A stretch of 64,000 bases of DNA, from positions 12,793-76,792 of the IMG/VR virus record IMGVR_UViG_3300032313_001281; one strand, given 5' to 3'. Below the pieces are notes generated by a model. It was not told where the DNA came from and searched no databases. It worked only from the letters and a program-made list of their open reading frames with translations. Position numbers and translations under genes: made by a program. The DNA is from a virus. Positions within the stretch are counted from its first letter, which is position 1; each line of letters starts with the position of its first letter. Positions 9,307 through 47,835 of this stretch are shown here, in pieces.

Positions 9307-9381
<75 letters not shown>

Positions 9382-12214: not shown

Positions 12215-12215
12215 C

Positions 12216-12293
12216 TGGAAGTGAGGGTCGGATTTGAACCGACGGCTTTAGGGATTTGCAGTCCCTTGCATTGGGCCTCTCTGCCACCTCACT
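12216..12293 (-). tRNA. tRNA-Cys(GCA)
   Basis: Loop CUGCAAA, U73 discriminator, CCA. Confidence 0.92.
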
Positions 12294-12299
12294 GTTGTT

Positions 12300-12373
12300 T
12301 GGTTGCGGGTGATGGAATCGAACCACCAACTGGAGCTTATGAGACTCCCGAGATACCGTTTCTCTAACCCGCG
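12300..12373 (-). tRNA. tRNA-Met(CAU), initiator-like acceptor stem
   Basis: CGCGGG...CCCGCAACCA with C1:A72 mismatch; loop CUCAUAA. Confidence 0.88.
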
Positions 12374-21524: not shown

Positions 21525-21599
21525 TGGTGGGCCTTCTAAGAATTGAACTTAGACTCCAACGATTATGAGTCGTTTGCTTTACCATTAAGCTAAAGGCCC
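21525..21599 (-). tRNA. tRNA-CAU, probably Ile2 (lysidine) or elongator Met
   Basis: GGGCCUU acceptor stem fully paired, loop CUCAUAA, ACCA. Confidence 0.85.
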
Positions 21600-28279: not shown

Positions 28280-29157
28280 TTGCCCCATCCGTTACCCCAT
28301 AAGTCTACATGCAATCTTGGACTGTAGTTCCATCCATGCTTGACACAGATGTCTGCTATGCGTAACTTGTTTCGATCGTAGGGTTCAACTACTCCACCCT
28401 GTGGCATTAAATAAATTTGTCCTGTAAATCCACCAGCACGGAAAGCATCTGCAGCCTTGATTGCTTCTGTAATATGCTCGTCTGTTTCAACAACAAACTT
28501 GAGATATGTGTGACCAATGTCTTGATAGCTCTTAACAATGTCTGGACAAATTGCATCTTCCCATGACTCACCTGACGCACTTAGCTTTGCACTTACACTA
28601 AATGTCAAATTGTTATAACCACGTCTTTTGTATTTGGGATTCAGTGTCCAATCCAACATCGTGTGCCTAAAGTCTGCGTGAATCTTTTGTGTGCCGTTGG
28701 TCTCAAATGTAATATTACGCAGATCCTGCATGCGTTCATGTTGCAACAGTTCTGTATATGCACGTTGCCAGCCCAACAAAGGTTCTCCACCAGTAATCAC
28801 AAGATGCACATCGTTGCCATTGTTCTGCTGCCACATGTTGTTGGGAGTCAGTGCCAACATGCGTTCTACCAGTTCTTCTGTGGTCTGTGACGGGCTCAAG
28901 TGTTTGTAAGCTGGGTGCCACGACGCATAACTATCGCATCCGGTCTCCACTAGGGGTAGATCATTGAATGTAGGATACATATGGACCACTTCGGCCACGT
29001 CGTCAGCACCGGTGCTTTTTTCGCCTGGCTTACAACCAAATCCTGCACAGGTAAAGTTACAGCCATAGGTGCGTAAGAACACACTAGGCACACCAACAAA
29101 GCGACCTTCGCCTTGTAAACTGTAGAATACTTCTGAAACTTTTATCTTTGCCACCAT
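28276..29157 (-). CDS. queE: 7-carboxy-7-deazaguanine synthase
   Basis: EVFYSLQGEG...G.PSVFLR..GCN..C...CDS, ITGGEP, ETNG, SPRLH..LW. Confidence 0.92.
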   Translation of the reverse strand: MVAKIKVSEVFYSLQGEGRFVGVPSVFLRTYGCNFTCAGFGCKPGEKSTGADDVAEVVHMYPTFNDLPLVETGCDSYASWHPAYKHLSPSQTTEELVERMLALTPNNMWQQNNGNDVHLVITGGEPLLGWQRAYTELLQHERMQDLRNITFETNGTQKIHADFRHTMLDWTLNPKYKRRGYNNLTFSVSAKLSASGESWEDAICPDIVKSYQDIGHTYLKFVVETDEHITEAIKAADAFRAGGFTGQIYLMPQGGVVEPYDRNKLRIADICVKHGWNYSPRLHVDLWGNGWGK

Positions 29158-29645
29158 GCCTCCCAAGGAAATACAATCCACGAATCTTCTTCAGCTTTAT
29201 TTAGATCAACGGCTGAATAACTAATTTTTAATTTGCTCTTACTTGCTTCGTTATCTACCAGCACCGCCACACGTACATTGTTGCCCCATACGTCTTTCCA
29301 ACGCTTGTCTTTGGGAAAACACCCACTAGGCCAATCTTCCTTGATCCAATTTAATGTGGCACCCGAGTCGTTGATATCGTCTACAATAAGGATCTGCTTG
29401 CCTTCATATGCATCTTCGGCCATCCACAAGTTACTTTCGCAAGCATTTTCATCACCGTCACGCAGACTTACCTTTAGTGTTTGCATGGGAACTTCTAGAT
29501 ATTGGCTAATAAGGTTGGCCGGAACCAAGCCGCCACGTGTGAGCCCAACCACATAGTCTGGACGCCAGGCATCTGCGTGTAGTTGTCGTAGAATTTCTTG
29601 TGTCTGGCACTCTACATCTTGCCAGGTATGATAGATTTTTTTCAT
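29142..29645 (-). CDS. purine phosphoribosyltransferase (Gpt-like)
   Basis: GLTRGGLVPA, LIVDDINDSG.T PRPP motif, WIVFPWE. Confidence 0.88.
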   Translation of the reverse strand: MKKIYHTWQDVECQTQEILRQLHADAWRPDYVVGLTRGGLVPANLISQYLEVPMQTLKVSLRDGDENACESNLWMAEDAYEGKQILIVDDINDSGATLNWIKEDWPSGCFPKDKRWKDVWGNNVRVAVLVDNEASKSKLKISYSAVDLNKAEEDSWIVFPWEAWWQR

Positions 29646-29679
29646 ACTTAATTGTACACTATTTGTGAAAAGATTGCAA

Positions 29680-30582
29680 CTATTTAGATCTCTTGCCAAT
29701 GATAGATTTCATTCCTTCGGCAAAATTTCTAGGCCGATATGCAGGCATGATTGAAAGTAATCGGTTGATGTTGGGTCTGCGTGTAGCAGTTGAGCCAGGT
29801 AACCCAGATTTCAGTGTCCACTTGGCCGATTCATAGCCCATGGCTTTGGCTATGATGTCAGCGGCTTCGGGTATGGTAATTTCCACATCTGTGCCAACGT
29901 TGACTACTTCACGCAACACCGTATTGGCACAGTGTATGGTGGCTTCTACAGCATCTTCAATGTAGCAAAAACTACGAGTTTCGGCACTGCCAGTAACTTC
30001 AAACACACCAGATTCAATCTTGGCCATTTGGTCAGCAATGAAATGGCCAGCCTTGCTGTCCGCACCGTAGATGTTGAAATATCTAAGTGCTACCCAAGGC
30101 AATTCACTATTGACCAAATAATTCTCGCTGGTAATTTTGGCCAGTCTATAACTCCAACGAGCATTGTGTATATTTTTGATAGTGATGTCTGTGTGCTCGG
30201 GTGTTGGACTTACTGGATCATCGGACACCAGTTCACTGCTTGACGCATACACCAACTTGGTCAAGGTATCACATTGTTGAGCAAACTCAAACACATGTAT
30301 ATCTGTGATAAAATTGTTGGTCAGCACTTGGTTAGGCCGCTCGTAAAAGTTCTTGGTACCGTTGATGGCTGCATAGTGGTAAATCTGATCAAAGTCACGA
30401 GGCAAATTGTCAAAGTTGCTCTGGTTCATAAGGTCCAGATTGACCCAGACATCACAGGGCGGTATGGTATTGCTACGACTATGGTTGTCCACAGCCCACA
30501 CTTCGTTGTCGGCGCTGGATTTTAATTGGCGGCAGATTTCTGTGCCCAATAAACCACTGGCACCTGTGACTAATATTTTCAT
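29680..30582 (-). CDS. NAD-dependent nucleotide-sugar epimerase/dehydratase
   Basis: TGASGLLG, YASSS, Y...K, RYFNIYG. Confidence 0.88.
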   Translation of the reverse strand: MKILVTGASGLLGTEICRQLKSSADNEVWAVDNHSRSNTIPPCDVWVNLDLMNQSNFDNLPRDFDQIYHYAAINGTKNFYERPNQVLTNNFITDIHVFEFAQQCDTLTKLVYASSSELVSDDPVSPTPEHTDITIKNIHNARWSYRLAKITSENYLVNSELPWVALRYFNIYGADSKAGHFIADQMAKIESGVFEVTGSAETRSFCYIEDAVEATIHCANTVLREVVNVGTDVEITIPEAADIIAKAMGYESAKWTLKSGLPGSTATRRPNINRLLSIMPAYRPRNFAEGMKSIIGKRSK

Positions 30583-31352
30583 TGTTTGACTTTCTCGTTG
30601 TCTTGTATAATGCTTTGGATCATGGTATATGGTAGTCCAAGATTTTGTATGAGATTGTTCCAGGCTGCGGTGTCTTTGGGCAGGCAATGCCCGCCATATC
30701 CACGCATGTTGGGATTGGCCATCAGATAGGCCGGATTGAAACATTCACGACGGGTAATGGCCTTGTAAACATTCATGTAGTTGGCCCCCATTTTATCACA
30801 CACATCAAATGTGATATTGGCAAAGGTCACACTCATGGCATGATGCACATTGTTGAAATATTTGATTATTTCGGCTTCGGTAGGTGTAACTCTGGCCACG
30901 TGCTGTGGAAAGCTGCCATGCAACTCTACAATAATCTCAGCATCTTCCTTGTTGTAACAACCTGCGACCAAAAGATCATGATTGTACACAAAGTCAGCCA
31001 GGGCACTCTTGGCCCTTAAAAACTCTGGAACCATGCAGAGACGCAAGGTAGGATACAGTTGATGTAATCGATCTGTGGTACCAGGAATCACAGTGCTCTT
31101 GATTGACACTAGACCCGGATAGTTGTTGACGGCCAATTCAGCAACCACGTTGTCAACAATACTGGTATCACAATCTCCATTGGCGGTCTGGTCGGTAGGC
31201 ACGCTGATAAACACCACTTCGGTGTCCAGCACATCGTTCATGGTGCTACCTGCATGCTTGGGATCAAAGAACGTCATGGTGTGTCCAAGATATTCTAAAC
31301 CTTCAAATACTGCACTGCCCACAGTGCCTCGTCCTATAATTCCTATTTTCAT
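30579..31352 (-). CDS. UDP-glucose dehydrogenase-like protein (lacks C-terminal domain)
   Basis: GRGTVG, KSTVIPG, PEFL, GYGGHCLPKD; only 257 aa. Confidence 0.85.
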   Translation of the reverse strand: MKIGIIGRGTVGSAVFEGLEYLGHTMTFFDPKHAGSTMNDVLDTEVVFISVPTDQTANGDCDTSIVDNVVAELAVNNYPGLVSIKSTVIPGTTDRLHQLYPTLRLCMVPEFLRAKSALADFVYNHDLLVAGCYNKEDAEIIVELHGSFPQHVARVTPTEAEIIKYFNNVHHAMSVTFANITFDVCDKMGANYMNVYKAITRRECFNPAYLMANPNMRGYGGHCLPKDTAAWNNLIQNLGLPYTMIQSIIQDNEKVKQ

Positions 31353-31966
31353 GTTGCTTCCTTAAAAGTCATATCTACACATCTACTGGTTTGATTCTCT
31401 TTGACCAGTTTATAAATTTGCTCCGCCACTTGTTCGGGACGCAAATAATCCAATTTGGGATCAATTTCTTTGCCTGCTGTGGCCATCCGGGTCAAGGTTC
31501 TTACCGGATTGATCAAGTCAATGGTAATGTTTGTGCCTTCTAGAGAGTCTTTGACTCCTTGCCAGAGATTATGCAATGCAGCCTTGCTGGCACTGTAAAG
31601 CGGATACAGTTTTTTTCCGCTGACATAACTGCTGGAACCAATCATGATCAATCGTGTGACATGATTTTGATTTTCTGGATTCATATAGTGTCTGACAATA
31701 CTCCAGTTGCTGCCGAAATTCACATTCATGGTTCTTGTGTGATCTTGTTCCCAGCCGTTTTCAAAAACACCTGCACAGTTTATGATCACATCGGGTTGCG
31801 CATTGGCCAATAGGCCACGTATTTCTTGATCCGCTGAAGACTTGTTGAAATCTATAATAGAACTATTGACCGGAATGATCCTGAATCCGTTTTGTAAAAA
31901 CATTTTTCTAGTGGCAGATCCAATCCCGCCACGGTCTCCAAAGATAAGAGCTGTTTGTTTTTTCAT
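31349..31966 (-). CDS. short-chain dehydrogenase/reductase
   Basis: G..GGIG, NCAG, YSASK. Confidence 0.85.
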   Translation of the reverse strand: MKKQTALIFGDRGGIGSATRKMFLQNGFRIIPVNSSIIDFNKSSADQEIRGLLANAQPDVIINCAGVFENGWEQDHTRTMNVNFGSNWSIVRHYMNPENQNHVTRLIMIGSSSYVSGKKLYPLYSASKAALHNLWQGVKDSLEGTNITIDLINPVRTLTRMATAGKEIDPKLDYLRPEQVAEQIYKLVKENQTSRCVDMTFKEAT

Positions 31967-32370
31967 TATCGTACTATGCTATCAACTCTATAAGTATCAC
32001 TCTCATAATCTTCACCGCCGCGTGGACCTTCGGCAAAGGCTATGAATGTGCATCCATGTTCACCTGTTCGCATGGCATGTATTTCCATGGGTTCGCTGAT
32101 GATCATGTCCCCATGTCCGGCCACAAACTTTTGAACTGGCTCCTCTCCATCCACAGCCTTGCTGTAGTAGGTCAACGTGCCATTTAGTACCAAGGTATAC
32201 TGTGTGGTCAGTTTGTGATAGTGATTGCCACGTACGGCACCAGGAGCATTGGTTATAATGCAACCATGGTTCATGTTACGGGCATAGAACATGTCAGTGA
32301 TTGTGCCACGATCGTCGGTGTGTTGACCTAGACCTTGTTCGATGTTTTTGTTGATATTGTAGTATTTCAT
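31966..32370 (-). CDS. cupin, NDP-sugar epimerase/isomerase-like
   Basis: DDRG...RGNHYH...H. Confidence 0.8.
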   Translation of the reverse strand: MKYYNINKNIEQGLGQHTDDRGTITDMFYARNMNHGCIITNAPGAVRGNHYHKLTTQYTLVLNGTLTYYSKAVDGEEPVQKFVAGHGDMIISEPMEIHAMRTGEHGCTFIAFAEGPRGGEDYESDTYRVDSIVR

Positions 32371-33596
32371 TGTTGTAAGAACCTTGTGTTGGGATTTATA
32401 TTCGATATGGCTTGTTTGAGACCTGCACCAATGTTCCAGCTCAAGATCACAGCATACGGCTTGTCATACTGAGCAAAGATTGTGTCGTCAGCAATGGGTA
32501 TTCTGCTCAAAGGAGTGTATTTTCCTTGTTTGAATGCGCTGGAATCAGTTATGTATTTCAAGTGTGTTCGGTTGAGACCGTGCCAGGTCAGCCAGGTATT
32601 AGCCTTGGCAGCAGCACCCACTCCTATAAACACAGCTTCTGGTTCGTTCTGTCGTATTTCATAGAACTGACGCAACCATTGATCTCGCTGTTGTTCAAAT
32701 CTGCGTTGCACTACCTCATAGAAACGTGTGTCAAATAGACCAATCTGTGTTTCTCTGGCTATGGCATCTTCTATGGCCACGGGCATAGCGGCTCCGGTGT
32801 CACGACGAGCAAACACTCTAAGGCTGCCGCCGTGGTAGTCAACCACATCAAAGTCTGTGATTTCTAGTCCCGCGGTCCTGAGCATATTCCAGGCCATCTT
32901 GATAGTAAAGTATGTAGGATGTTCATGATACACCATGTCAGTGAAACGACCTGACTCAATCATGCTGAGCCAATAAGGCACTTCAAACACAAACACAGCA
33001 TCATCGGACAACAAAGAGGCCACAGCTCTAGCAAATGCAACAGGATCGTTGGCATGATTGAACACATTATTGGCCATTACAACATTGGCACTGCCCACAC
33101 GTTTAACTAGATCTTTGGCCACAGATTCGCAGAACATGGCTGGCATGACCTCTACACCACGTTCTTTGGCAACATGACACATGTCCATGCTGGGGTCTAT
33201 TCCTATGGCACGCACTCCTTCTCCGCGGAACTGATTGATTAGATAGCCATCGTTACTGCCTATTTCCACAGCAAACTTTATTGCTGGACATCTATTCTTC
33301 ACAGTGGTGGCATATTCATTCCAGTGTGCTCGAGCTGTGGCACTGTTGCTGGAAGTATAGCTGTAGCTGTAGAGACTGTACCGATCCTCGGCATGGCTCA
33401 CATAGCCCAACTGTATGCTGCCAGAGTCAGCATTGAGATTGACCTGTAGTGGAAACACAGGCTCGCTGAGATTGAGTTGGTTCTCAGCGACGAAAGTGTC
33501 TGCATAGGCATGCTGACCAAAGTCAAGTATTTTTGTCACTGGTTGCTGGCTGATCAAACAATGTGTCACTGCTTGGCTGGTAGTTATATTGGTCAT
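32367..33596 (-). CDS. NDP-sugar C-methyltransferase family
   Basis: EIGSNDG, ANNVFNH, YHEH..YF, HGGSLR, GAAAK, KQGK.TP. Confidence 0.88.
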   Translation of the reverse strand: MTNITTSQAVTHCLISQQPVTKILDFGQHAYADTFVAENQLNLSEPVFPLQVNLNADSGSIQLGYVSHAEDRYSLYSYSYTSSNSATARAHWNEYATTVKNRCPAIKFAVEIGSNDGYLINQFRGEGVRAIGIDPSMDMCHVAKERGVEVMPAMFCESVAKDLVKRVGSANVVMANNVFNHANDPVAFARAVASLLSDDAVFVFEVPYWLSMIESGRFTDMVYHEHPTYFTIKMAWNMLRTAGLEITDFDVVDYHGGSLRVFARRDTGAAMPVAIEDAIARETQIGLFDTRFYEVVQRRFEQQRDQWLRQFYEIRQNEPEAVFIGVGAAAKANTWLTWHGLNRTHLKYITDSSAFKQGKYTPLSRIPIADDTIFAQYDKPYAVILSWNIGAGLKQAISNINPNTRFLQQ

Positions 33597-34453
33597 TATT
33601 TGTCGAGTACCATTTTGATGTGACCATTGGCATCTTTAACTCTTGTAAAAGAACTTATTTGATTATTAGGGTCATTTTCCTTGATGCGTTGTATGGGAGG
33701 AATTTTTCCACTCTTGGTGTCTTCCCACCATTGTGTGCTGAGACCACGAGATTTCATGTAGGCGGCCAAGCGTTCAGCGTCAATGTATCTGTGCTGGACA
33801 AAAAACTCATTGTGTAGATCTCGAGGATTGTTGGGATTACCCTCGAGATATTCACGTTTTTTGTAGGCTTCGTCCTTGTTGTTGCCAGTAAGGTCAGCAC
33901 GATCGTGTGTGACATCTACTTCGATTATTTTCATTATGTCTAACCAATAGGCCATTTGGCTGCCTTCGGCATCTAGCATTTGATGACGGCTGAGTTGTCC
34001 CAGAGTTTCCATCCATTCTTTAGGAAAAATAGGAAATATGCTATAAGGATGTTCGTTGTGTGTGTGCACCTTGAGCAATCGAAACTCGCCGGTGCACTCG
34101 CGTATGCGCTGATCCCAATCTTGTGTTTGCATGACAGCGTCATCACACCATACAAACAACCAATCGGCGTCGGCATCTCGAGCCAGAGTGTTGAAATACT
34201 GATTGAGACCGGCATAGCCCAATGGTTCAAATCCCAGGGCTTCATAGTCTATGTCCCGTGCATCCAATTCGGGTTGTATGTTATTGGTAAAATAGTCAAG
34301 ACCTATGCTATCATTGTTGTCAATGCCCAATCTAAACTGCACAGAGTCTAGATCATGTGCCAGATCGATTAAGCTGAACAGGCTGCGACGCAAGGCATCT
34401 GTGCGCTTGTGTGTGGGCAACAATACAGCTATGTCGTATTGGCGTGATTTCAT
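33596..34453 (-). CDS. GT-A fold glycosyltransferase
   Basis: VLLPT..R, WCDD (DxD-like). Confidence 0.75.
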   Translation of the reverse strand: MKSRQYDIAVLLPTHKRTDALRRSLFSLIDLAHDLDSVQFRLGIDNNDSIGLDYFTNNIQPELDARDIDYEALGFEPLGYAGLNQYFNTLARDADADWLFVWCDDAVMQTQDWDQRIRECTGEFRLLKVHTHNEHPYSIFPIFPKEWMETLGQLSRHQMLDAEGSQMAYWLDIMKIIEVDVTHDRADLTGNNKDEAYKKREYLEGNPNNPRDLHNEFFVQHRYIDAERLAAYMKSRGLSTQWWEDTKSGKIPPIQRIKENDPNNQISSFTRVKDANGHIKMVLDK

Positions 34454-34457
34454 AATT

Positions 34458-35093
34458 TTAGTTTTCAATTTGTATTTTTTGCGGAGATATGCCCACACGA
34501 TCCAATTTCAATTCAATGGCCAAGGCAATGGTATGAGCCACCTGGGCCGGACCCAGCACAGGACCACGTGCATATTCCTCGGCTATGTCCTGATCCGAGC
34601 GGGTGCCTTGGTAATTTTGTCGCAACATGTTGGTCTGAGTTTTTCCAGGAACAATCTCGGTAAACAAGATTCCCGGATAGTCTCGCTTGACAGCGTTTAG
34701 ACTTTGGCGCAGGGCGATCTTGGAACCTACCATGAATATGGTATAGCTGATAGGATCATCTGCGCTGGTACTGGTTAGGTAGATGAATTGTCCTGTGGTT
34801 CTTTGTTGTGTGTATTGTTTGGCCAACAATAACGGCGCTGTGAAATTCACAGCCACATGATTCTGTTGATTCTGCCAAGAATTTTTGTGCCAACCCAAAT
34901 ATGCACCGCCATTGGCACCTGCACAATTCACTACCACATCGTACTCGGCTAGATCCAGACGATCTATTGAGGCAAAATCACCAAGATCAAATTCTTGTCT
35001 TGTGGGGGCCGTGACCACGTGTCCCTGGCGGCCTAGCAACTGTTTTACGGCTTGCCCAATTCCGCTGTTGCCTCCGGTCAAGAAAATTTTCAT
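34458..35093 (-). CDS. short-chain dehydrogenase/reductase (atypical catalytic motif)
   Basis: TGGNSGIG, NCAG; MVGSK in place of YxxxK. Confidence 0.8.
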   Translation of the reverse strand: MKIFLTGGNSGIGQAVKQLLGRQGHVVTAPTRQEFDLGDFASIDRLDLAEYDVVVNCAGANGGAYLGWHKNSWQNQQNHVAVNFTAPLLLAKQYTQQRTTGQFIYLTSTSADDPISYTIFMVGSKIALRQSLNAVKRDYPGILFTEIVPGKTQTNMLRQNYQGTRSDQDIAEEYARGPVLGPAQVAHTIALAIELKLDRVGISPQKIQIEN

Positions 35094-35101
35094 ATAGTTG
35101 A

Positions 35102-36667
35102 TTAGGATTTGCCAGGGGTAATGTTTGTTATGTTGTTGCCGTTGTAGGCTATGTCGAATTGAAACATGTGCTGATTGATGTCATTGGCTTGAAGACGTTC
35201 CCATGGATCTTGAGTTTTGTTCTTGACACCTTGCCAAAAACTGGTATTCTGCCCTAGGTTTTTCATGTAGGCGCAAAGTTGATCACAGTCTGTATGGCGT
35301 TGTTCTATGGTTGCTGGATAATGAAAGTCTTGGACATTCTCAGGATGGCCTTCAAATCTGTGCTTGGGTTTGATGACTTCTATGGCGTTCTGGACCAACT
35401 CCACTTGATTGTGGGTCACATCAATGTCCACAATCTCCATCAGGTCCAACATGTAGGCTATCTGACTGATCTCGGCATCAATCATCTGATGACGGCTCAA
35501 CTGACCCAGTTGTTCATACCAGACTGCGGGCATTATAGGAAATATGCTGTAGGGATGCTCGTTGTGAGTGTGTACTTTGAGCACTTTGAATTGACCATTG
35601 TAGGCTTTGACAACCTGATCCCAATCCTGTGTTTCCATCACAGCATCGTCGTTCCAGACAAACAACCAATCAGCTGAAGCCTGTTGTGCTAGATAGTTAT
35701 AGTAATGATTCAGACCTTCGTAGCCCATGCTTTCAAAGGCCTGAGCTTCGTAGGCTATGTCCCGTTCATCCAGCCAAGGCTGTATCACAGATGTAAAATA
35801 GTTCAATCCTGTTTCGTCATCATTGTCAAACCCAAACACCAGTTGTAGGTCGGAAGCATCGTAGGCACGTTCTACAATGCTGGTCACGCTGGCTGTCAAC
35901 TCGTCGGTCCGACCTCGACTGGGCAACAACACCGCAATTGAAAATTCACGGCTGGGTTTTTCAAAATAAAATTCGTAATCATCTAGACCCAGCACATTAC
36001 TGACATCTATGCCCGGCAAATAAAATTCTGGACGATCGGTAAAGTCTGTGCAGAGATCGTGCCGTAAAAAAGTAAATTCATAACAGTCACAGCTGCCGTC
36101 TGCGCTCAATGGAGTGTGGTTGTTGCCGTGCAAATGTACCAACACATATTCAGTCTGTAGTTTTTTTACTGTGTTGACGAATTGTTGTCTGCGATGATTG
36201 GCAAAGTGTATTTCAATTACTATGCCAGGAAAAATCTCTCGATTGGCTAAAATTTCATCAATAAGGGGGAATTCACCACCTTCAATATCCATCTTGAGCA
36301 ATACTCGTTTGCTGTCCAAACGTTGGATGGCCGTGGAAAATGCAGTGTATCCTGGACCTATGTTTTCTTCATAGTGTGTGGCCTTGGTTGAAAAAAAATC
36401 TTGGTAAGGAGCACGCAGGTAATCTTTCATGTTGTTGATGTTCACAGTTCCATCATACATGTGTATTTTGGACTGGGGCTTGAGATCTCGCCAGCCTTGA
36501 TCAAAACTCCAGTTCTCGCCTAGCCCACAACTGAGCAGGTCATCGCAGTGATCCAACAGCATTTGTGGTATGATATAACCGCCATCGCTGGCACACCCTA
36601 TACGCACAGGGTCGGCAATGATCTTGGGTAAACAACATATCAGTTCATTGGGTAATTGTATTTTCAT
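35102..36667 (-). CDS. FkbM-like methyltransferase fused to GT-A glycosyltransferase
   Basis: RIG...DGGY, LKMDIEGGE, HLHGNN; C-terminal half paralogous to 33596-34453. Confidence 0.8.
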   Translation of the reverse strand: MKIQLPNELICCLPKIIADPVRIGCASDGGYIIPQMLLDHCDDLLSCGLGENWSFDQGWRDLKPQSKIHMYDGTVNINNMKDYLRAPYQDFFSTKATHYEENIGPGYTAFSTAIQRLDSKRVLLKMDIEGGEFPLIDEILANREIFPGIVIEIHFANHRRQQFVNTVKKLQTEYVLVHLHGNNHTPLSADGSCDCYEFTFLRHDLCTDFTDRPEFYLPGIDVSNVLGLDDYEFYFEKPSREFSIAVLLPSRGRTDELTASVTSIVERAYDASDLQLVFGFDNDDETGLNYFTSVIQPWLDERDIAYEAQAFESMGYEGLNHYYNYLAQQASADWLFVWNDDAVMETQDWDQVVKAYNGQFKVLKVHTHNEHPYSIFPIMPAVWYEQLGQLSRHQMIDAEISQIAYMLDLMEIVDIDVTHNQVELVQNAIEVIKPKHRFEGHPENVQDFHYPATIEQRHTDCDQLCAYMKNLGQNTSFWQGVKNKTQDPWERLQANDINQHMFQFDIAYNGNNITNITPGKS

Positions 36668-36706
36668 CACAATATTTATATACGCCGTTTACTACGAAAA
36701 CAAATC

Positions 36707-37246
36707 TTATCCTTCGTATACTGCTGAGTTTGCATTGTGCTCAAACACTTCAACTGAACGCAACTTAACACCTTGCCCAACAGGATAGCGACACTTGAAT
36801 TCTTTTACAGTATTTCCGTCTTGTGAAACCAGAAACCAAGAGTTACCTGCTTGAAATGCCCGGAGAATATTTTCCATGGTTTTGTAAGCAAGTTCGGCAA
36901 ACTTTTCGCAACCTACACCCTCAACAATACGAACATCGCATACTCCACCTTGATCTTGCAACCCTAGTTCGGCCATCTTTTCAAACATAGTACGATGAGG
37001 ATCATCTTCGGCAATCACTAACGTGTGATCAAACATATACTCAGACCACTCTTTGAATGCTTTGAGTCCACCAAAGTCCATGACCCAATTACGATCATCC
37101 AATGTTTCACTTTCAAAAATTAGTTTGATACCAATCGAGTATCCGTGTAGTAATGAGCAATGACTGTGTGTGCTTCGCCATTGTCTAAAACAGCATGAAA
37201 GTCCGCGGTCGTTACCGTAAGTTTTTGTTGAAAGATATTTTGCCAT
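36707..37246 (-). CDS. queD: 6-carboxy-tetrahydropterin synthase
   Basis: C..LHGY, WVMDFG, FDH, E..A, FEH..NSA.Y. Confidence 0.88.
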   Translation of the reverse strand: MAKYLSTKTYGNDRGLSCCFRQWRSTHSHCSLLHGYSIGIKLIFESETLDDRNWVMDFGGLKAFKEWSEYMFDHTLVIAEDDPHRTMFEKMAELGLQDQGGVCDVRIVEGVGCEKFAELAYKTMENILRAFQAGNSWFLVSQDGNTVKEFKCRYPVGQGVKLRSVEVFEHNANSAVYEG

Positions 37247-37274: not shown

Positions 37275-37317
37275 AGGTGGCAGAGTTTGTAAAGCGGGGT
37301 GACACCAAAGACCGCTG
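37275..37317 (-). promoter_or_regulatory. preQ1-I-like pseudoknot riboswitch candidate in the queD leader
   Basis: AGCGG-UCUUUGGUGUCACC-CCGCU-UUACAAACUCUGCCACC; TAAATA box at 37324-37329. Confidence 0.55.
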
Positions 37318-37322
37318 TAGTG

Positions 37323-37691
37323 CTATTTACGATAGTTTCCTTTGCCCGGAATGGTATTACGGACTCCGCCCACTGGGTCCGCTACATCGCCTGTCCTGCG
37401 TGGAATAAGATGCACATGCGGATACATCACAGTTTGGCCGGCAGCTTCTCCTGAATTGTATCCAATATTAAACCCATCGCACTCGCCTGATACAACCATA
37501 TGGTTACCATCAGCCAGAGCGTGTTCCATAGCCTGCACAATCCAATGAGAATTGTCATCTTTGGGCACATACAATCTATGCCCAGGGGTGCATGGATAGC
37601 GGTCTAAATACACAGCAACCAACGGACGATCTTCTACAAGATTGTCCCATGGTGCTACGCCCCTCTTTTGTGCTTCTAGTAGTGTTGTCAT
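37323..37691 (-). CDS. HIT family nucleotide hydrolase
   Basis: PGH.L.VP, AGQTV..PHVHLIPR. Confidence 0.9.
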   Translation of the reverse strand: MTTLLEAQKRGVAPWDNLVEDRPLVAVYLDRYPCTPGHRLYVPKDDNSHWIVQAMEHALADGNHMVVSGECDGFNIGYNSGEAAGQTVMYPHVHLIPRRTGDVADPVGGVRNTIPGKGNYRK

Positions 37692-40202: not shown

Positions 40203-40631
40203 TTAGTGTACACTAACTTCTTGTTCTAAATAGCGAATCAGCTCTTTGTCTGTGGGTTCTACTGTGTAATTGTTCTTGAAGAAGATTTCATAACTGTCTG
40301 ATCCGTATTTGCCTATACCATACAGTTTGTCGGCTTGGTTGCCATCCCATTCCATAAAATCCAGGGTCATCTGTGTGAGCCTTTCGTAGCGACGATTCAC
40401 CATGCCCAGACTCCAAATCACATCACGAACCTCGTCCGGAGTGGCCTGCAGGAATGCATACGGACTAGGCCACTTGTGCCAAAATACAGGTGCAACTGAC
40501 TTCACAGGCTTGCGACCAGTTTGATTCAGCATGATCACTGCTACCATGTGTTGCCAGGCCGCATTAACACTCTCCAAGCCATCAGGCAACTGTTGTTGCA
40601 CCATGAGATCATCACGGAGTGGCTGTATCAT
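40203..40631 (-). CDS. minimal HhH-GPD DNA glycosylase (MBD4-like)
   Basis: W...VA.IMLNQT, LYGIGKYG.DS, PTDK. Confidence 0.82.
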   Translation of the reverse strand: MIQPLRDDLMVQQQLPDGLESVNAAWQHMVAVIMLNQTGRKPVKSVAPVFWHKWPSPYAFLQATPDEVRDVIWSLGMVNRRYERLTQMTLDFMEWDGNQADKLYGIGKYGSDSYEIFFKNNYTVEPTDKELIRYLEQEVSVH

Positions 40632-41479
40632 CTTGGAGCAAAGTCCTGTTGTAGTTTGATATTGTCCATGAACTCTTTCTTGGTGCCAGGATCTGTTTGG
40701 AACACACCTTTTAACACTGTAGTCTGTGTTAAACTACTGTGTGCCATTATGCCCCTATTTTCGCAACACCCATGTTGAGCTTGTATGTAAACTCCGACAT
40801 TCTCTGAGTCGGTTGCTTTCATTATTTCTCTTGCGATGTCGTTGCACAGTTCTTCTTGTAGCGTACCACGGCGAGCGCACCACTGAGCGATCCTAGTATA
40901 CTTAGACAGACCGATAAGTTTGTTAGCGGCGATGATGCCAATATAAGCAACACCACTGACAGGCTGATGGTGATGAGAGCACATGCTTCGTAACTCAGAA
41001 CGCACCACAAGCATGCCTTCATAGCGGTCCGCCGAATCATTTGGAAAAGCTGTTGCATCTGGTGCTGGATCATATCGACCTCCCATAATTTCGTTGTAGT
41101 ACATTTTAGCAAGACGACGGGCGGTACCTTGGCTGTTAGGATCATTCTCACGATCAATCAACAAGGTATCTAATACTCGTTCAAACGCTTCTGCGGCTTC
41201 ATCAATCAAGCGTTCTTTATCACCCTCGTGTAAATATTCGCTAATGTTATCGCCAGCCCAGAAACGTTTTTTATCACGCTTCATGTTAAACCGGATAGCA
41301 TCGGCTAGATACTTGCCTTCTTCGTAACCTTTATCGCTCATGTGCATTACAGCATCTTCGTAGCCGGGATGGTATGGAGCTTCGGCTACTATGCGGCTTT
41401 GCTTCAAAGCGTCAAATGTTGCTTGGCTGTCATTATTTTTCACTGCGTTCTCTCTATCGTCTGAAGTAAATGTTGTCAT
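40628..41479 (-). CDS. folE: GTP cyclohydrolase I
   Basis: SMCSHH, IGLSK..R, QE, H.C...RG. Confidence 0.93.
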   Translation of the reverse strand: MTTFTSDDRENAVKNNDSQATFDALKQSRIVAEAPYHPGYEDAVMHMSDKGYEEGKYLADAIRFNMKRDKKRFWAGDNISEYLHEGDKERLIDEAAEAFERVLDTLLIDRENDPNSQGTARRLAKMYYNEIMGGRYDPAPDATAFPNDSADRYEGMLVVRSELRSMCSHHHQPVSGVAYIGIIAANKLIGLSKYTRIAQWCARRGTLQEELCNDIAREIMKATDSENVGVYIQAQHGCCENRGIMAHSSLTQTTVLKGVFQTDPGTKKEFMDNIKLQQDFAPR

Positions 41480-41504: not shown

Positions 41505-42092
41505 TTAGATTTTTGCAAGATCAAATGGAATTTTTCTCAAGTCTGGATACACGGCCGCTTGGCTTTGGGGTGTGATGGCGGGCAATAATTCTAATCCTTT
41601 AACACATAGTTCTAATGTTGGGCAATAATGGTAGCCCAGGATCAAGTCTGTTTCGGTTTCCCATGGTATGTGTAGGTCTCTTCCATCACTGCGCTGGCGA
41701 CTCATTGTGCGATATGCTTCTGCATCATCTAGTAAGATAGCTCCTACTTTGCCCAACTGTAGCGGCTTGGTCCATCCAAAACTTAGACACTGCATGGTTC
41801 CAGAATTATACATGTTGCGCTCTAACCTACGAGCCGAATCCCAAATTCTAGTTCCGTAGAATTGATATTCGCCCGACCATTTTTCAGTGACCATCTCGTA
41901 CTCAATGCCCAAGTGATGCATCAGCATGGGAACACTGAGATAGGTATAAGCAGAGAATCGAGTGCGTTTAACTTGATCATACCGCATGCACAATTCAATG
42001 GCATGTGTACAACCATCGGTTACAACCACATATGGCGCACCGGTATATTCGGCTAGGGCTGATTCAAAATCAAACAGTGCCCGAAAGCTCAT
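41505..42092 (-). CDS. DegT/DnrJ-family aminotransferase, short form
   Basis: FE..LAEY.G, DSA, SF...K.L..G..GA; 195 aa. Confidence 0.75.
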   Translation of the reverse strand: MSFRALFDFESALAEYTGAPYVVVTDGCTHAIELCMRYDQVKRTRFSAYTYLSVPMLMHHLGIEYEMVTEKWSGEYQFYGTRIWDSARRLERNMYNSGTMQCLSFGWTKPLQLGKVGAILLDDAEAYRTMSRQRSDGRDLHIPWETETDLILGYHYCPTLELCVKGLELLPAITPQSQAAVYPDLRKIPFDLAKI

Positions 42093-43042
42093 CTATTGTA
42101 CCACGCCCAGGCATGACTAATCATATTTTCAAGCGTGAACTTGGGTTTCCATGTACTCACACCCATGAACTTACCGGCATCAGCTGTGAGCACAGCCGGA
42201 TCACCTTCACGTTTTGGACCATGAACAACTGGTATTGAAGTTTTGGTTATTTGTGCAGCCAACTGTATCACAGCAAGATTGCTGTTGCCGGCGTTTGTAC
42301 CAAGATTATAGATGTCACTTGGAATATCTTTGTCTATAGCAACAATGTGTGCGTTGGCCAGATCTTCTACGTGGATATAATCTCGAACACAAGTGCCATC
42401 ATCGGTGGGATAGTTGGTGCCATACAGTGTAAAGTCGGTGCCGTTCTTGACTGATTCTAGTACTCGAGCAATGATATGCGTGGCACCCGGTGCTTGGCCG
42501 TGTCTGCCTTGACTGTCTGCACCACAGGCATTGAAGTAACGGAATGACACAAAGTCTAATCCATAAGCCTGCTTGTAGCTGGTCAGCATCCAGTCCGTCA
42601 TCAGCTTGCTTTGACCGTATGGACTGATGGGCTCGGTAGGATCAACTTCTTGCACCGGCGTCATGACGGGATTGCCGTAGGTTGCGGCACTGCTACTGAA
42701 AATGAATCTAACTTGTTTGTCATGATTCTTGACCAGGTAGTCTAGTAGGATCTTGGTTTTAACAAAGTTATTATCGTAGTATTCTTGCGGATTTGATACA
42801 CTGGGGCCAACAAGACTAGTGCCAGCACAGTGTATGATGGCATCTGGGCAAAATCTTTTAATTGCATCCAATCCCAACTCAGCTGAAAAATCACCGGTGT
42901 GCCACTGACATGGAACCGGAATCAGATGCCCGGGTGGCATTGCTCGATCAATGGCCAACACGTCGTGGCCAGCGTCTACTAACTTGATTAAGGTTTCTCC
43001 GCCAATAAATCCAGCTGCTCCAGTAACTACAACTTTAGTCAT
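42089..43042 (-). CDS. galE: UDP-glucose 4-epimerase
   Basis: GAAGFIG, FSSSAATYG, SPYG.SK, RYFNACGA, DGTCVRDYIHV. Confidence 0.9.
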   Translation of the reverse strand: MTKVVVTGAAGFIGGETLIKLVDAGHDVLAIDRAMPPGHLIPVPCQWHTGDFSAELGLDAIKRFCPDAIIHCAGTSLVGPSVSNPQEYYDNNFVKTKILLDYLVKNHDKQVRFIFSSSAATYGNPVMTPVQEVDPTEPISPYGQSKLMTDWMLTSYKQAYGLDFVSFRYFNACGADSQGRHGQAPGATHIIARVLESVKNGTDFTLYGTNYPTDDGTCVRDYIHVEDLANAHIVAIDKDIPSDIYNLGTNAGNSNLAVIQLAAQITKTSIPVVHGPKREGDPAVLTADAGKFMGVSTWKPKFTLENMISHAWAWYNR

Positions 43043-44244
43043 CTTTCAATTTTCCTTACATGGTATTTGGCTTGACTAACATGATCTCTATACCGATTGC
43101 CGGCACGATTCCAAGATTCGCCTTTACCTTCTAGGATGTCTACAACACGATCTACTGTGCCATCAGTCCAATCCGAGATCAATCCCATGTTGTGATGTGG
43201 CTTGTTCAATAGCAATTCTAACTTGTGATAAGCGTCGTCGATACTCCAAGGAACATATAAACGATTAGGATCATCAGCAAAAGTCTCGGGAAAACTTCTA
43301 TAAGCAGGATAAAGAACATTGCAACCCAAAGTATCAGCTTCTGAAACGGTGTTAGAAACCCAGTCTTGTAATGCACAATTAAACAATACACGAGTATCAT
43401 TAAGCAAATTATAGTAATCATTTTTCTTTAAGTTTTCATAAATTACAAGTTTACCTTCCGCCTCTAGTTGTCTAGCACGATCGATGTACCTGGGATTATT
43501 GCTACGCAAAGGGCCGCCTTGAAATATAGTAAACTCTACATTCTTATGCCGACCTTGATTGTGATACATTTCGATCAGGTCCATGTAAAAGTCTGGTTGT
43601 TTCTCTTGGTCAAATCTGGCAGCAAAGCCCACACGCATTTTTCTTTGGTCAAAGGATTTTATATTCTGTGCACCGCCTATGCGTTCTAACACTTCCGCTT
43701 TGCCAAAGGCCAGCCCTGAGATATTGTAGATAGGAGCAGTCCAGCCGGCAATACGCATGTGTGCAACCATTTCTTCGTTGGTAGCCAATACACCTGTTAC
43801 AAATTCGTTAACCATCTTTTCATACAGGTCCATCCACTTCGCCATGCCCCACACATGTACAAAATCGTCAGGGTCAATGGCCTGTGCAAGGCAACGAACA
43901 AATACACGAGGCCGCTGATTACTAGGTATTTGATCCATAATATAAGGGAGACTTTCGATACCAGGTTGAAACATGTCTTCAAAGTAGATAACATCTTCAT
44001 TGGTAACCTTTCCATTACGCATCATTTGTACCAGATTCATCATTTGACTCATACCAAAGTAACTGCGGCCGTGGGCATCCAAGACTTGACCCACGCTGAT
44101 GCTCTGGGTGTTGTCAATAGTCTGTCCAGGCACGATCACATAGTTGATGCCGCGCTGTTCAAACACACGAGTATTCCACTCAGTGAGTTGCAAGGTATAT
44201 CTGGCTTCATAACTCTCTAAGCCCATGTAGAATAGTTTTCTCAT
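43039..44244 (-). CDS. GT-B fold glycosyltransferase
   Basis: FAARFDQEKQP, QDWVSNTVSEA, YP.YRSFPE nucleotide-sugar binding region. Confidence 0.72.
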   Translation of the reverse strand: MRKLFYMGLESYEARYTLQLTEWNTRVFEQRGINYVIVPGQTIDNTQSISVGQVLDAHGRSYFGMSQMMNLVQMMRNGKVTNEDVIYFEDMFQPGIESLPYIMDQIPSNQRPRVFVRCLAQAIDPDDFVHVWGMAKWMDLYEKMVNEFVTGVLATNEEMVAHMRIAGWTAPIYNISGLAFGKAEVLERIGGAQNIKSFDQRKMRVGFAARFDQEKQPDFYMDLIEMYHNQGRHKNVEFTIFQGGPLRSNNPRYIDRARQLEAEGKLVIYENLKKNDYYNLLNDTRVLFNCALQDWVSNTVSEADTLGCNVLYPAYRSFPETFADDPNRLYVPWSIDDAYHKLELLLNKPHHNMGLISDWTDGTVDRVVDILEGKGESWNRAGNRYRDHVSQAKYHVRKIER

Positions 44245-45057: not shown

Positions 45058-45507
45058 TTAAATTACAATTGATTGAGTTGGACGAGTAAGGTTATAACTA
45101 ATAGAGCATCCGTTCTCGCCGTCTTCGGACACTTCAATTACTACAGCACGACCCGGATAACGATCTGCTATCTGTACATACAAGTCATCCGCGATCATTT
45201 CACAACTTTTCCAGTCTAGTTCTAAAACGGTATTCGAACCGTTATACAACGACTCGAGCCATCGCTTGAATTGGATGAACTCGATGTCCCGGTCATTGTG
45301 GAACACATCGATTGACACCCGGAAATGAAATATATGGCGATGAGGATTAGCAAGGAACGAAACATCATATTCTCCTGCTGTATTTAACCGGGGATCTGTC
45401 GCGGCCGCTGGATAGCAATGGATGCCTTCCTTGCGGAATGTAACCCAAATTTTACGTTCTGCGGCATCCATAATGCGTGTTACGGTTTCTCTTTGTTCCT
45501 GTATCAT
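45058..45507 (-). CDS. QueD-like T-fold protein, DpdL-like (putative CDG decarboxylase)
   Basis: LANPHRHIF (LxxxHRHxF), RDIEF, SCE, VSEDGENG; lies in the dpdA cluster. Confidence 0.65.
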   Translation of the reverse strand: MIQEQRETVTRIMDAAERKIWVTFRKEGIHCYPAAATDPRLNTAGEYDVSFLANPHRHIFHFRVSIDVFHNDRDIEFIQFKRWLESLYNGSNTVLELDWKSCEMIADDLYVQIADRYPGRAVVIEVSEDGENGCSISYNLTRPTQSIVI

Positions 45508-45731: not shown

Positions 45732-46246
45732 TTTAACACCTCATCTTGTGTATATTTAGACCAGTCGGTGAACTGACTGCGTTTTTGTAAATCATGTAGG
45801 CTGTGACACCACACTCCGGCATTGGTAGCACGAAAGTCTCGGTCATCCAGTTTGAGTGTAGCATTGTAGCCAAACTGACGGATATAAGGTAGTTTAACAC
45901 TGATCATAGGAATAAAGTTATGGAACTCTACCAACGAGGATTCTAGTAGTCCTTCCGCTTGTGCATGATCTAGATCAAGGGTGCAATAGTTGGGGCGTTG
46001 TTCTAAACAAGGCTGAATCATTGTTTCCCAATGACGCCAGCCAAAATTATCGTTAATGTCTAATGGTGGAAAACTTTGGTTGGCCCCAAAGTAGATATGC
46101 TCACAATTGTTGTTGTCAAACTCTTGCAGAACAATCTGCGGATCCTGCCGACCCACCACAAACAAGGTGCGTAGGCCAAATGCAGGTGTGTGTTCTACTT
46201 CGTTTCCAACAAAGAAACTTACTGCTTCATGTCCGTCTCGGTTCAT
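45728..46246 (-). CDS. hypothetical protein coupled to the dpdA-like gene
   Basis: G.EVEHTPA.G..TLFV, HIYFGANQS, KLDD.DF.ATN.GVWC. Confidence 0.7.
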   Translation of the reverse strand: MNRDGHEAVSFFVGNEVEHTPAFGLRTLFVVGRQDPQIVLQEFDNNNCEHIYFGANQSFPPLDINDNFGWRHWETMIQPCLEQRPNYCTLDLDHAQAEGLLESSLVEFHNFIPMISVKLPYIRQFGYNATLKLDDRDFRATNAGVWCHSLHDLQKRSQFTDWSKYTQDEVLK

Positions 46247-47835
46247 TATGCTTGATCATGTTCGAGTTGATCTAATCGGGCCAGTTGGTCCGGGCTAAAG
46301 TCTTCTTCTAATTGTACACTATCTTCGTCTGCATCGTCAACAGTTTTGAACAAAGCATTGAACTGGCTGTGTGCGTTTTTGGCCTTCTTGCCTTTGAATC
46401 CACGTGTGCCCACAATGTCCATCCAATAACGGTCATAGTGCTCGATAATGGCTTCGGCTTCGGCACGGTCTGGTGTGGCAAATATGGCATCCACAATGTC
46501 CTTGAATCGAGCATGGTCACCATTTTGATTCCACATCATGGCCGGCCATGAACCCGAATCATATTCACGATTGGCACGTTGCACTGCTTCAATATGCATC
46601 CAAACATTGTGACCCATTAATAGAGCATAGCTGAAACTATCCCACGACGTCTTGCCTTCCTTGCCAATCTTGTTGAGATCGCCGGGCTTGTAGATACAGA
46701 CATCTTTCATCTGTAGTTGCTGGCTGATTGGGCTTTCATCAAAGTGATTGATCAAGCCATCAGCAATCACAGCAGGTCCAAACTGGCGTGTATCCGTGGC
46801 ATACTTTTTGTCATCCACAATAGGGCTCATCCTGTAGCACCATTTGTCATTGTGTGGTAAATCAATGTGATGATATACTTGACCGTTGGCAGTTGCTAAA
46901 AACGGACTGGCACAGTCAAAGCTGATGGTAAAACTTGGATTCACATACTTACGCACAGCACGTTGGATATCTGTGAGCAATACTGCCCACTCTAACTTAC
47001 TTGTGCCCAAGAAGTGCATCCAATCATGAACACCTTCTTGCAATAGATTATCATGACGCAAGGCCACCAGTCGCTTCAACACTAGATGCACATCACACAT
47101 GTTCTGACCGCCCATACTCCAGCCATCAAAGTGAGTGTCAGGATATACTTTGGGATCACAATAGTGCTTCATGATGTCATACCACCGATCTGCATCAGCA
47201 TGATTGGCACCCTGCAACACATTCAAGAACTTGGCACCGCCATTCTTGACACCTTTACGGTGTCGCATGAAGTAGTCGTTATTGAACTTGGTGGCATCTA
47301 CAGCTTCTTCTAGTGTGGTGATCTGACAGGCCGCTGATGCTTTTTTGTCGTGTATGACCCAGGTCGGAATATCAAGAATCATACCATAGTCAGCAATACT
47401 ATCCAACCAGGTCAACACTGCCGCACGCTTCTTTTGTGCTTTGGGACAACCTGAGTTGGCCTTCCAGTCGCCTTCCCACAAGCCTTTGGCTATTTGGAAT
47501 CCACCCGAGTCACCTAACATTAGTGTACCAGGTTCACGATTGCGAACCATGTCCTCTGACCAATCCTGTTTGTTCAAATCCAAGTTGGCGTGTCCACCTG
47601 AATATAAACTCCACTTGTAAGGAAACAGACCTTTAGAACTGTTGAGCCAGTTCATCTGTTCCATGTCCGGAATACCCGCAGGCATCCTGGCCGGATCTAC
47701 ATAAGGACCTGCCGCAGGATCACGTTGCTTGCCTACGAATGTGGCATAGAATCCTGAAATGGCCGGCAAGAACACAGCATACTGGCTACGTCCATCTGGG
47801 CCAAGTTGCTTGGCAGTTAGATTGTCTTGGATCAC
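46246..47835 (-). CDS. dpdA: TGT-fold DNA 7-deazaguanine transglycosylase (DpdA/DpdA2-like)
   Basis: GDSGGFQ, LD.P, NVLQG, HFLG, SFD..S TGT-family motifs; no CxCxxC zinc site; folE/queD/queE nearby. Confidence 0.8.
   Translation of the reverse strand: MIQDNLTAKQLGPDGRSQYAVFLPAISGFYATFVGKQRDPAAGPYVDPARMPAGIPDMEQMNWLNSSKGLFPYKWSLYSGGHANLDLNKQDWSEDMVRNREPGTLMLGDSGGFQIAKGLWEGDWKANSGCPKAQKKRAAVLTWLDSIADYGMILDIPTWVIHDKKASAACQITTLEEAVDATKFNNDYFMRHRKGVKNGGAKFLNVLQGANHADADRWYDIMKHYCDPKVYPDTHFDGWSMGGQNMCDVHLVLKRLVALRHDNLLQEGVHDWMHFLGTSKLEWAVLLTDIQRAVRKYVNPSFTISFDCASPFLATANGQVYHHIDLPHNDKWCYRMSPIVDDKKYATDTRQFGPAVIADGLINHFDESPISQQLQMKDVCIYKPGDLNKIGKEGKTSWDSFSYALLMGHNVWMHIEAVQRANREYDSGSWPAMMWNQNGDHARFKDIVDAIFATPDRAEAEAIIEHYDRYWMDIVGTRGFKGKKAKNAHSQFNALFKTVDDADEDSVQLEEDFSPDQLARLDQLEHDQA

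Follow-up and report, generated by a model that had tools for sequence, protein, structure and literature searches.

The queD leader and its elements

We studied the short leader of a queD gene in a 64,000-nucleotide (nt) stretch of viral DNA (positions 12,793 to 76,792 of IMG/VR record IMGVR_UViG_3300032313_001281; hereafter, the window), which is part of a 76.8-kb contig with a CheckV completeness estimate of 22% and whose source is described as an uncultured jumbo phage. The leader, like all the genes around it, lies on the minus strand, where it fills the gap between a HIT-family gene (37691-37323) and queD (37246-36707). A preliminary description, made from the letters alone, had proposed a riboswitch resembling class I preQ1 aptamers (preQ1-I) at this place, and all the elements that it listed, namely, a TAAATA box, a stem (P1), its loop, a tail pairing back to that loop, and a Shine-Dalgarno sequence (SD), are present on the minus strand. 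The TAAATA box (37329-37324), located 7 nt upstream of P1 and overlapping the TAG stop codon of the HIT gene, resembles a -10 element or a late promoter and is a candidate promoter.

The pseudoknot as a whole spans 37316-37276. The two strands of P1, AGCGG (37316-37312) and CCGCU (37297-37293), enclose a 14-nt loop, UCUUUGGUGUCACC (37311-37298). This loop begins with L1 (UCUUU, 37311-37307), which ranges from 4 to about 10 nt among relatives and whose second and third positions (CU) are invariant in alignment A1, and goes on with GGUG (37306-37303), the 5' strand of P2a, which pairs with CACC at 37279-37276. The rest of the loop, UCACC (37302-37298), comprises a mismatch (U37302 opposite C37280), the 5' bases of P2b (pairs C37301-G37281 and A37300-U37282), a variable junction base (C37299), and a conserved C adjoining P1 (C37298), at the place of the preQ1-I specificity base; alignment A1 shows no variation in UCA or in the last C. 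After CCGCU, the strand reads UUACAAACUCUGC before reaching CACC, and L3 (37292-37283) is made of an A-rich UUACAAA followed by a conserved CUC, with invariant A and U columns in the same alignment. The tail that pairs back, UUACAAACUCUGCCACC, contains the CACC complementary to the loop GGUG.

The 3' strand of P2 (UGC plus CACC, 37282-37276) doubles as the 5' half of helices that cover the SD or the start codon. In the window, whose leader belongs to class A (see below), a hairpin, CCUAUG (37277-37272)/CAUAGG (37260-37255), spans 37277-37255, has CC in common with P2, and contains the AGG of the SD. The SD itself (AGGAG, 37257-37253) is found 18 nt past P2, and the start codon ATG (37246-37244) is followed by GCA; the ribosome site of the open reading frame (ORF) 37246-36707 covers 37257-37241.

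Conservation and covariation of the pseudoknot

Taken singly, the leader was uninformative, its fold being no better than chance (minimum free energy [MFE] of -17.6 kcal/mol versus -15.3 +/- 2.8 kcal/mol for shuffled sequences; z score, -0.8), and it was the comparison between relatives that proved decisive. When viral contigs were searched with the QueD protein, 596 relatives were obtained, and the same leader was found in about 73 of the best 80 (73 to 98% identical), which were examined for it. From phage contigs picked by QueD protein similarity, 132 distinct copies of the motif were collected. P1 was paired in 100% of 49 distinct sequences, with compensatory changes, and in 99.7% of cells in a second, protein-anchored sequence set. 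It appeared as AGCGG/CCGCU, AGAGG/CCUCU, AGUGG/CCACU, UGCGG/CCGCA, and also ACCGG/CCGGU, so that its pairs 1, 2, and 3 covaried (A-U/U-A, G-C/C-G, and C-G/A-U/U-A, respectively). Parsimony on a FastTree tree of 151 QueD proteins gave 35 state changes for the middle pair (pair 3) and 17 for the outer one (pair 1), counts that are inflated by tree error and that point to many independent events rather than to one inherited change.

For P2, both MAFFT and covariance-model alignments misregistered the shorter variants, giving 69% paired cells. We applied instead a gap-free rule by which bases at an equal distance k, counted back from UCAYC and forward from CUGC, form a pair. This way, 90% of the cells at P2 positions 1 to 5 were paired (53 sequences), compared with 59 +/- 3.6% when the tails were permuted among sequences (a maximum of 72% in 2,000 permutations) and 26 to 54% when the register was slid. 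Each position had three or four Watson-Crick pair types plus G-U intermediates, with P2a found as GGUG/CACC, GGCG/CGCC, GGUG/CGCC, AUGACGC/GUGUCAU, and GCAA/UUGC. Two far more distant QueD subfamilies were sampled by protein similarity, and their flanks were searched with the covariance model, with no pattern imposed. There, the loop UCA and the tail UGC changed jointly: five distinct sequences, belonging to at least three lineages, have UCG together with CGC. P2 therefore runs on past the variable pairs, through a U-C mismatch and then a C-G and an A-U pair. The replacement of the A-U pair of P2b by G-C was never single sided among 121 sequences, and on alignment A5 this pair was A-U in 50 cases, G-C in 4, and unpaired in none. 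P2 therefore consists of four to seven variable pairs plus the two conserved ones (C-G and A-U), leaving only two bases, Y and an almost invariant C, before the 3' strand of P1.

Compensatory changes that include G-U intermediates indicate selection on RNA pairing. The queD leader is a real, conserved H-type pseudoknot that has been kept in hundreds of related phages, and the preQ1-I-like layout proposed in the preliminary description was borne out in this respect by the aligned leaders. About 20 of the 51 positions are invariant, and they lie in loops and junctions. The junction base next to P1 was C in 122 and U in 1 of the 123 distinct sequences parsed, while the base before it was U in 87, C in 18 (including the one copy with U at the junction), and A in 14; the other four copies have a one-base insertion. 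The U-for-C variant (UCACU CCACU) was found in three IMG/VR contigs with an identical leader (L395, positions 334-382; L396; and L397). In purine and preQ1-I riboswitches, the equivalent C-to-U change retunes ligand specificity, and the natural variant hints at a second specificity here.

A reading without any RNA function, which takes the hairpin for a weak terminator of the HIT gene and the tail for a sigma-70 promoter of queD, with the pseudoknot as a chance overlap, was the one favored at first. A promoter scan found a sigma-70-like site, TTTACA-17-TGcTATAAT (37293-37265, minus strand), with 11 of 12 matches and an extended -10, its -35 overlapping the end of P1 and L3 and its -10 forming the loop of the SD hairpin; this site, the UUU that follows the stem, and the unremarkable z score of the fold all suit such a reading. 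It was dropped when the TATAAT loop was found to vary in relatives while the stems covary: what is conserved is the hairpin stem around TATAAT, not TATAAT itself. Within class A, ACA in L3 co-occurs with TATAAT- or TAAAAT-like loops, and the other leader classes, which mostly have U or A at the place of ACA and no such loop, keep the knot without this promoter. Given that the covariation already contradicts it, we regard this explanation as very improbable.

Link to queD and absence from cataloged RNA families

The motif occurs once per phage genome, almost always immediately before queD. Six phage genomes or large contigs were searched with our own covariance model, and each had exactly one strong copy (45 to 63 bits), always before queD. 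Using a degenerate 23-nt pattern, at least 120 stretches of viral contigs were matched, and in 75 of the 80 that were fetched, the match directly preceded a gene of the QueD family, even though the products were only 36 to 98% identical to the QueD of the window; most of the other five were ORF miscalls. The element is thus conserved upstream of homologous queD genes, as the preliminary description presupposed. Where queD lacked the leader, either the gene was embedded in another operon or the motif was found one gene further upstream. Along these lines, in three contigs (L056, positions 2426-3525; L058, 2205-3525; and L310), the motif heads a small operon containing queD, preceded in one of them by a second PTPS paralogue (40% identical) and in the other two by a methyltransferase of the Methyltransf_9 family.

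Beyond viral contigs, a pattern scan of 185,579 prokaryotic genomes (one per species, 596 Gb) gave mostly chance matches and three true copies, all on small contigs of metagenome-assembled genomes that resemble binned phage. No motif was found with the covariance model in Xanthomonas phage PhiXhv-15, Synechococcus phage BUCT-ZZ01, or Acinetobacter phage HD01 or by blastn over the GenBank phage collection. What emerges is an RNA of 41 to 50 nt conserved in hundreds of uncultured jumbo and T4-like phages.

This RNA matches no cataloged family. The preliminary description had called for a comparison with the Rfam PreQ1 models, and the search with RF00522 (PreQ1) alone, against the contig of the window and five related genomes, found nothing at the motif even at an E value of ≤10 per genome, so that the gathering threshold of the family (39 bits) was not reached. 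Similarly, cmscan of two leader types against all 4,227 Rfam families (E value of ≤10) matched no PreQ1 class (I, II, or III) at the motif, and a scan of the whole window at the gathering thresholds also found nothing there. The resemblance to class I therefore holds for size, topology, and position in the leader of a que gene and fails for membership in RF00522: the motif is preQ1-I-like, yet it cannot be filed as a member of that family.

Transcript start, expression platform, and direction of the predicted switch

Among 126 distinct upstream regions, TATAAT-like hexamers (at least five of six matches) clustered 6 to 9 nt before P1, with 43 hexamers at these offsets and about 1 to 3 at most others, and TAAATA was found 5 to 8 nt before P1 in 21 regions. 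Given these -10-like boxes, the knot probably forms the start of the transcript, as riboswitch aptamers do.

Downstream of the knot, there are at least four classes of leader, and in each of them, RNAalifold found a conserved helix that uses the 3' strand of P2. In class A (48 leaders, including that of the window), CCUAUG/CAUAGG covers the SD and has CC in common with P2; its stem is kept in 48 of 48 leaders while the loop varies. The helix covers the start codon in class B (45 leaders; GUCAUC/GAUGGC) and class C (16 leaders; UGYCAUUG/CAAUGGCA) and the SD in class D (9 leaders; UGUCUU/GGAGACA). The MFE structure of the window leader combines both kinds of contact, with UGCCA paired to UGGCA (37245-37241) and the CC engaged in the CCUAUG/CAUAGG hairpin. 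Furthermore, the loop strand of P2 is in many leaders AUGGC or AUGAC, the letters of the start site, so that the tail would choose between a decoy and the real start.

Since the 3' strand of P2 sequesters the SD or the start codon in every class, formation of the knot should free the ribosome site. When the aptamer was locked in the calculations, the mean unpaired probability of this site rose from 0.43 to 0.61; 90 of the 124 leaders gained more than 0.1 in accessibility, and 1 lost. Pairing between the tail and the ribosome site exceeded that of composition-matched shuffled tails in 95 of the 124 leaders (means of 4.2 and 3.2 pairs). As bare duplexes, the alternative helix was the more stable one (median of -9.0 versus -5.5 kcal/mol for P2), and the knot would thus need extra stabilization to win. 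Judged from these predicted folds, the anatomy of the leader would be that of a translational ON switch rather than one of feedback repression, which makes the feedback control suggested in the preliminary description doubtful.

The pathway to which queD belongs

The product of queD (36707-37246, 179 amino acids [aa]) is a phage-type member of the 6-carboxytetrahydropterin synthase family (PF01242, 1.7e-12; phrog_2389, 1.4e-34), 43 to 47% identical to QueD of cultured phages with 7-deazaguanine gene sets. Like all the diverged QueD subfamilies behind the motif, it has CxxxHGY instead of the canonical CxxxHGH, that is, a tyrosine in place of one zinc-ligand histidine. The minus strand also encodes GTP cyclohydrolase I (FolE; 40628-41479; PF01227, 2.9e-39; phrog_2197, 1.8e-45), a QueE-like radical SAM enzyme (28276-29181; phrog_2076, 2.3e-53), and, overlapping the latter gene, a xanthine/guanine-type phosphoribosyltransferase (PRTase; 29142-29699; phrog_8995, 3.2e-20); the NCBIfam QueE and XPRT models match these last two below their cutoffs.

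Two more genes on this strand are relevant. DpdL was defined by Cui et al. 2023 (PMC10516641) from Acidovorax phage ACP17 and Cellulophaga phage phiST as a T-fold paralogue of QueD in which LxxxHRH replaces CxxxHGH; it occurs in phages that have FolE, QueD, QueE, and DpdA but not QueC, where it was proposed to decarboxylate 7-carboxy-7-deazaguanine (CDG) to 7-deazaguanine. The ORF at 45058-45507 codes for a T-fold protein with LANPHRH, 56% identical to the ACP17 and 33% to the phiST protein, and agrees with this definition in motif and gene company, making it a putative CDG decarboxylase. Of 22 other large contigs with the motif, 18 also had a DpdL-like gene, as did all 5 that were at least 90% complete. 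The ORF at 46246-47835 (529 aa) contains GDSGGFQ, invariant in five homologues (alignment A3). DSGG(F/Y)Q is the catalytic loop motif of tRNA-guanine transglycosylase (TGT), an enzyme with a (beta/alpha)8 fold. Pfam TGT, Pfam at an E value of ≤1, PHROGs, and single-sequence and profile searches of the PDB gave no TGT match for this ORF. Its AlphaFold2 model is modest (mean pLDDT of 60, core of 70 to 89), and the top 50 PDB matches of this model in Foldseek were all TGTs (E value of about 2e-7; TM of about 0.47 to 0.5), pointing to an enzyme with the TGT fold whose candidate function is DNA transglycosylation of the DpdA kind.

Searches for QueC and QueF came up empty for the window, its contig, and near-complete relatives (one of them 99% complete), and no TGT was detectable with Pfam in the contig or in the 99%-complete relative; among the large motif-bearing contigs, QueC searches retrieved only short, weak PP-loop matches and no full QueC. 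That the pathway seems unable to make preQ1, as first described, thus still stands, with the DpdL-like and TGT-fold genes in the place of QueC and QueF. By its gene content, the pathway is of the QueC-less phiST type and should make 7-deazaguanine, not preQ1. A pterin (BH4-like) pathway, suggested by FolE, PTPS, and SDR genes, had been considered and was dropped for 7-deazaguanine once the QueE, DpdL-like, and TGT-fold genes were found.

Neighboring genes and related phages

Between queD and the PRTase-queE pair, there is a sugar-nucleotide cassette (29680-36670, minus strand) with genes for an FkbM-like protein, two SDRs, a C-methyltransferase, a cupin, two UDP-glucose dehydrogenase-like proteins, and epimerases, and more epimerase, aminotransferase-fragment, and glycosyltransferase genes are found at 41505-44244. 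Relatives carry other genes after queD, such as those for a 300-aa protein without known function or a methyltransferase. Among the RNA genes of the contig are those of a tmRNA in two pieces (permuted; RF04321, 109.8 bits) and six tRNAs (minus-strand coordinates in the window, 17559-17849, 9310-9381, 10182-10255, 12144-12373, and 21528-21599). Motif-bearing phages have T4-like traits, such as a family B polymerase and TAAATA boxes.

Some cultured phages have related gene sets. Synechococcus phage BUCT-ZZ01 (ON615601.1) has an operon (68014-73457) of QueE, xanthine-guanine PRTase, a hypothetical protein, QueD, and FolE, together with a DpdL homologue (66871-67185; 39% identity) and without the leader motif, and could serve as a cultured system for a QueC-less pathway with a PRTase. 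Homologues of the TGT-fold and DpdL-like proteins, all annotated as hypothetical, are found in two cultured jumbo phages, Pseudomonas phage PA5oct (MK797984.1; 223000-224280, 35%, and 225747-226121, 54%, respectively) and Sinorhizobium phage Phosso (PV764938.1; 30% and 66% identity), which on this basis may make 7-deazaguanine DNA.

Proposed mechanism and candidate ligands

We propose, with a probability of about 0.62, that the leader is a cis-acting, preQ1-I-like pseudoknot switch, stabilized by a ligand, that turns ON the translation of queD. The 3' strand of P2 would have a second possible partner in the SD and/or the AUGGC of queD, and without extra stabilization, this alternative helix would win and hide the ribosome site. 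Once the knot is stabilized, most likely by a guanine-like small molecule, the tail would be captured, the ribosome site freed, and QueD translated. Ligand dependence, the identity of the ligand, and the ON direction are what we infer from the conserved architecture and the predicted folds. The junction C sits where preQ1-I reads the Watson-Crick face of its ligand, which argues for a 2-amino-6-oxo purine-like face. Candidates are 7-deazaguanine, CDG, preQ0/preQ1, and the guanine released by DNA transglycosylation. In descending order of our rough odds, the ligand would be a base of the 7-deazaguanine family, which has not quite an even chance; guanine or another purine, which is rather unlikely; no small molecule at all, which is less likely still; or a pterin, which is a long shot.

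Several points weigh against the ligand-driven ON switch. Locking any 5' segment tends to raise downstream accessibility, making the locking test partly trivial; the control with shuffled tails is moderate leader by leader (1 in 25 or fewer was reached in only 9 of the 124); and covariation gives the alternative helices thin support, since AUGGC is coding and leaves them little room to vary. Without a match to RF00522, the binding pocket may differ from that of preQ1-I. The internal sigma-70-like site found in the class of the window may act as a second promoter and give an aptamer-less, unregulated queD mRNA. The motif is absent from every cultured phage checked, so that there is no experimental system at hand. 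Finally, it would be unusual for the product of a pathway to activate a gene of its own biosynthesis, and for that reason, the ON logic fits guanine or a precursor better than the product of the pathway. Such a switch would respond more naturally to a signal of demand or supply, such as a pterin precursor or the guanine that the transglycosylase would expel from DNA and that the phage PRTase could recycle, than to an end product, with commitment through positive feedback by 7-deazaguanine or CDG as another possible logic.

The balance between the two helices also bears on whether a small molecule is involved at all. The pseudoknot could be real and regulatory as the operator of a phage or host protein, like the mRNA pseudoknot of gene 32 in T4, or as a fold, either constitutive or sensitive to temperature, that determines how much QueD is translated. 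Its structure and gene association would fit any cis-regulatory RNA, the absence of an Rfam match and the T4-like character of the phages agree with it, and the long Watson-Crick P2 might fold without a ligand. However, the invariant loop and junction positions are arranged as the preQ1-I pocket, the gene controlled is a classic preQ1-I target, the knot loses to the alternative helix on secondary-structure energy and needs some stabilizer, and no candidate RNA-binding protein is linked to the motif. We therefore consider regulation without a ligand unlikely, though it has more in its favor than the other alternatives.

Going one step further than the ligand-stabilized ON switch, we tentatively suggest, at somewhat under even odds, a new riboswitch class with preQ1-I-related architecture and a rebuilt pocket that senses a base of the phage DNA-hypermodification cycle (7-deazaguanine, CDG, or guanine expelled by the transglycosylase) and turns ON translation of queD, the gene for the second step of the pathway (after FolE). 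Phages rarely have riboswitches, and none that controls DNA hypermodification is known to us. Full-text literature searches retrieved no report of a riboswitch on a phage queD, and the word "riboswitch" appears zero times in each of the two main papers on phage 7-deazaguanines (PMC10516641 and Hutinet 2019). If true, this would be the first known case of a viral DNA modification pathway under riboswitch control. Were the RNA to bind a 7-deazapurine or guanine, nature would have supplied a tiny aptamer of new specificity and with ON logic, which could be put to use as a sensor or genetic tool. In that event, it would also reveal the timing by phage of a costly chemistry directed against restriction and exemplify the retuning of a riboswitch fold outside bacteria. 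The conserved decoy start site, in which the AUGGC of the loop competes with the real start codon for one tail, offers a clean model of translational switching.

Comparison with known systems

The closest known RNAs are the preQ1-I riboswitches of types I to III (e.g., Bacillus subtilis queC, T. tengcongensis, C. antarcticum, and Escherichia coli). Their described features (PMC11625349) include the topology, G-C pairs at the top of P1, an A-rich start of L3, and a conserved C (the specificity base) directly 5' of the 3' strand of P1, preceded by U or A. The phage motif is likewise a small H-type pseudoknot in the 5' leader of a que gene, with a 5-bp P1 whose top two pairs are invariably G-C, a conserved C in the same place, mostly with U before it as in type I, and an A-rich L3 (7 nt) right after P1, which would dock in the minor groove of P1 by analogy with preQ1-I structures (PMC11625349). 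In both, the capture of the 3' tail in P2 would be the regulatory event, as predicted for the phage leader.

These similarities would also suit an ordinary, if divergent, preQ1-I riboswitch that responds to preQ1 or preQ0 of the host by repressing queD, as its bacterial counterparts do. Apart from the lack of any RF00522 match in the six genomes, the differences make this improbable. P2 has 7 to 10 layers of ordinary Watson-Crick pairs in the phage motif, compared to about four, partly noncanonical, in preQ1-I; L1 (4 to 10 nt) begins with NCU, and only 2 nt (YC) lead from P2 to P1; and L3 goes on with a conserved YUC instead of ending in A. In preQ1-I, L3 runs directly into P2, which includes or adjoins the SD or is followed by a terminator. 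In the phage motif, the SD lies 15 to 35 nt beyond P2 and outside it, the tail acting as the anti-SD or anti-start strand, and the predicted outcome of this wiring is activation. Moreover, the motif is restricted to uncultured phages, which lack QueC and QueF and whose pathway would end at CDG or 7-deazaguanine. The phage motif thus probably works like preQ1-I, whether by descent or by convergence.

As for the pathway, the nearest relative is that of phiST, in which FolE, QueD, QueE, DpdL, and DpdA3 lead to the full replacement of guanine by 7-deazaguanine in DNA (PMC10516641). The window shares with it FolE, QueD, QueE, the DpdL homologue with LxxxHRH, a TGT-fold enzyme, and the absence of QueC, but adds the purine PRTase and the large sugar-nucleotide cassette, and its TGT-fold protein (529 aa) has no sequence match to known DpdA. 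In phiST, queD starts only 11 nt after the preceding gene and has no leader.

The phage leader has the general anatomy of riboswitches, that is, a conserved aptamer, variable platforms of one logic, and a position in the 5' leader of a gene of one pathway. In its predicted logic, it resembles the adenine (add) riboswitch, where part of the aptamer pairs with the ribosome site in the free state and ligand-stabilized folding frees it. The add aptamer is a three-way junction of unrelated fold, while in the phage leader, the competitors would be a pseudoknot helix and a start-site helix, with the loop strand copying the sequence of the start site.

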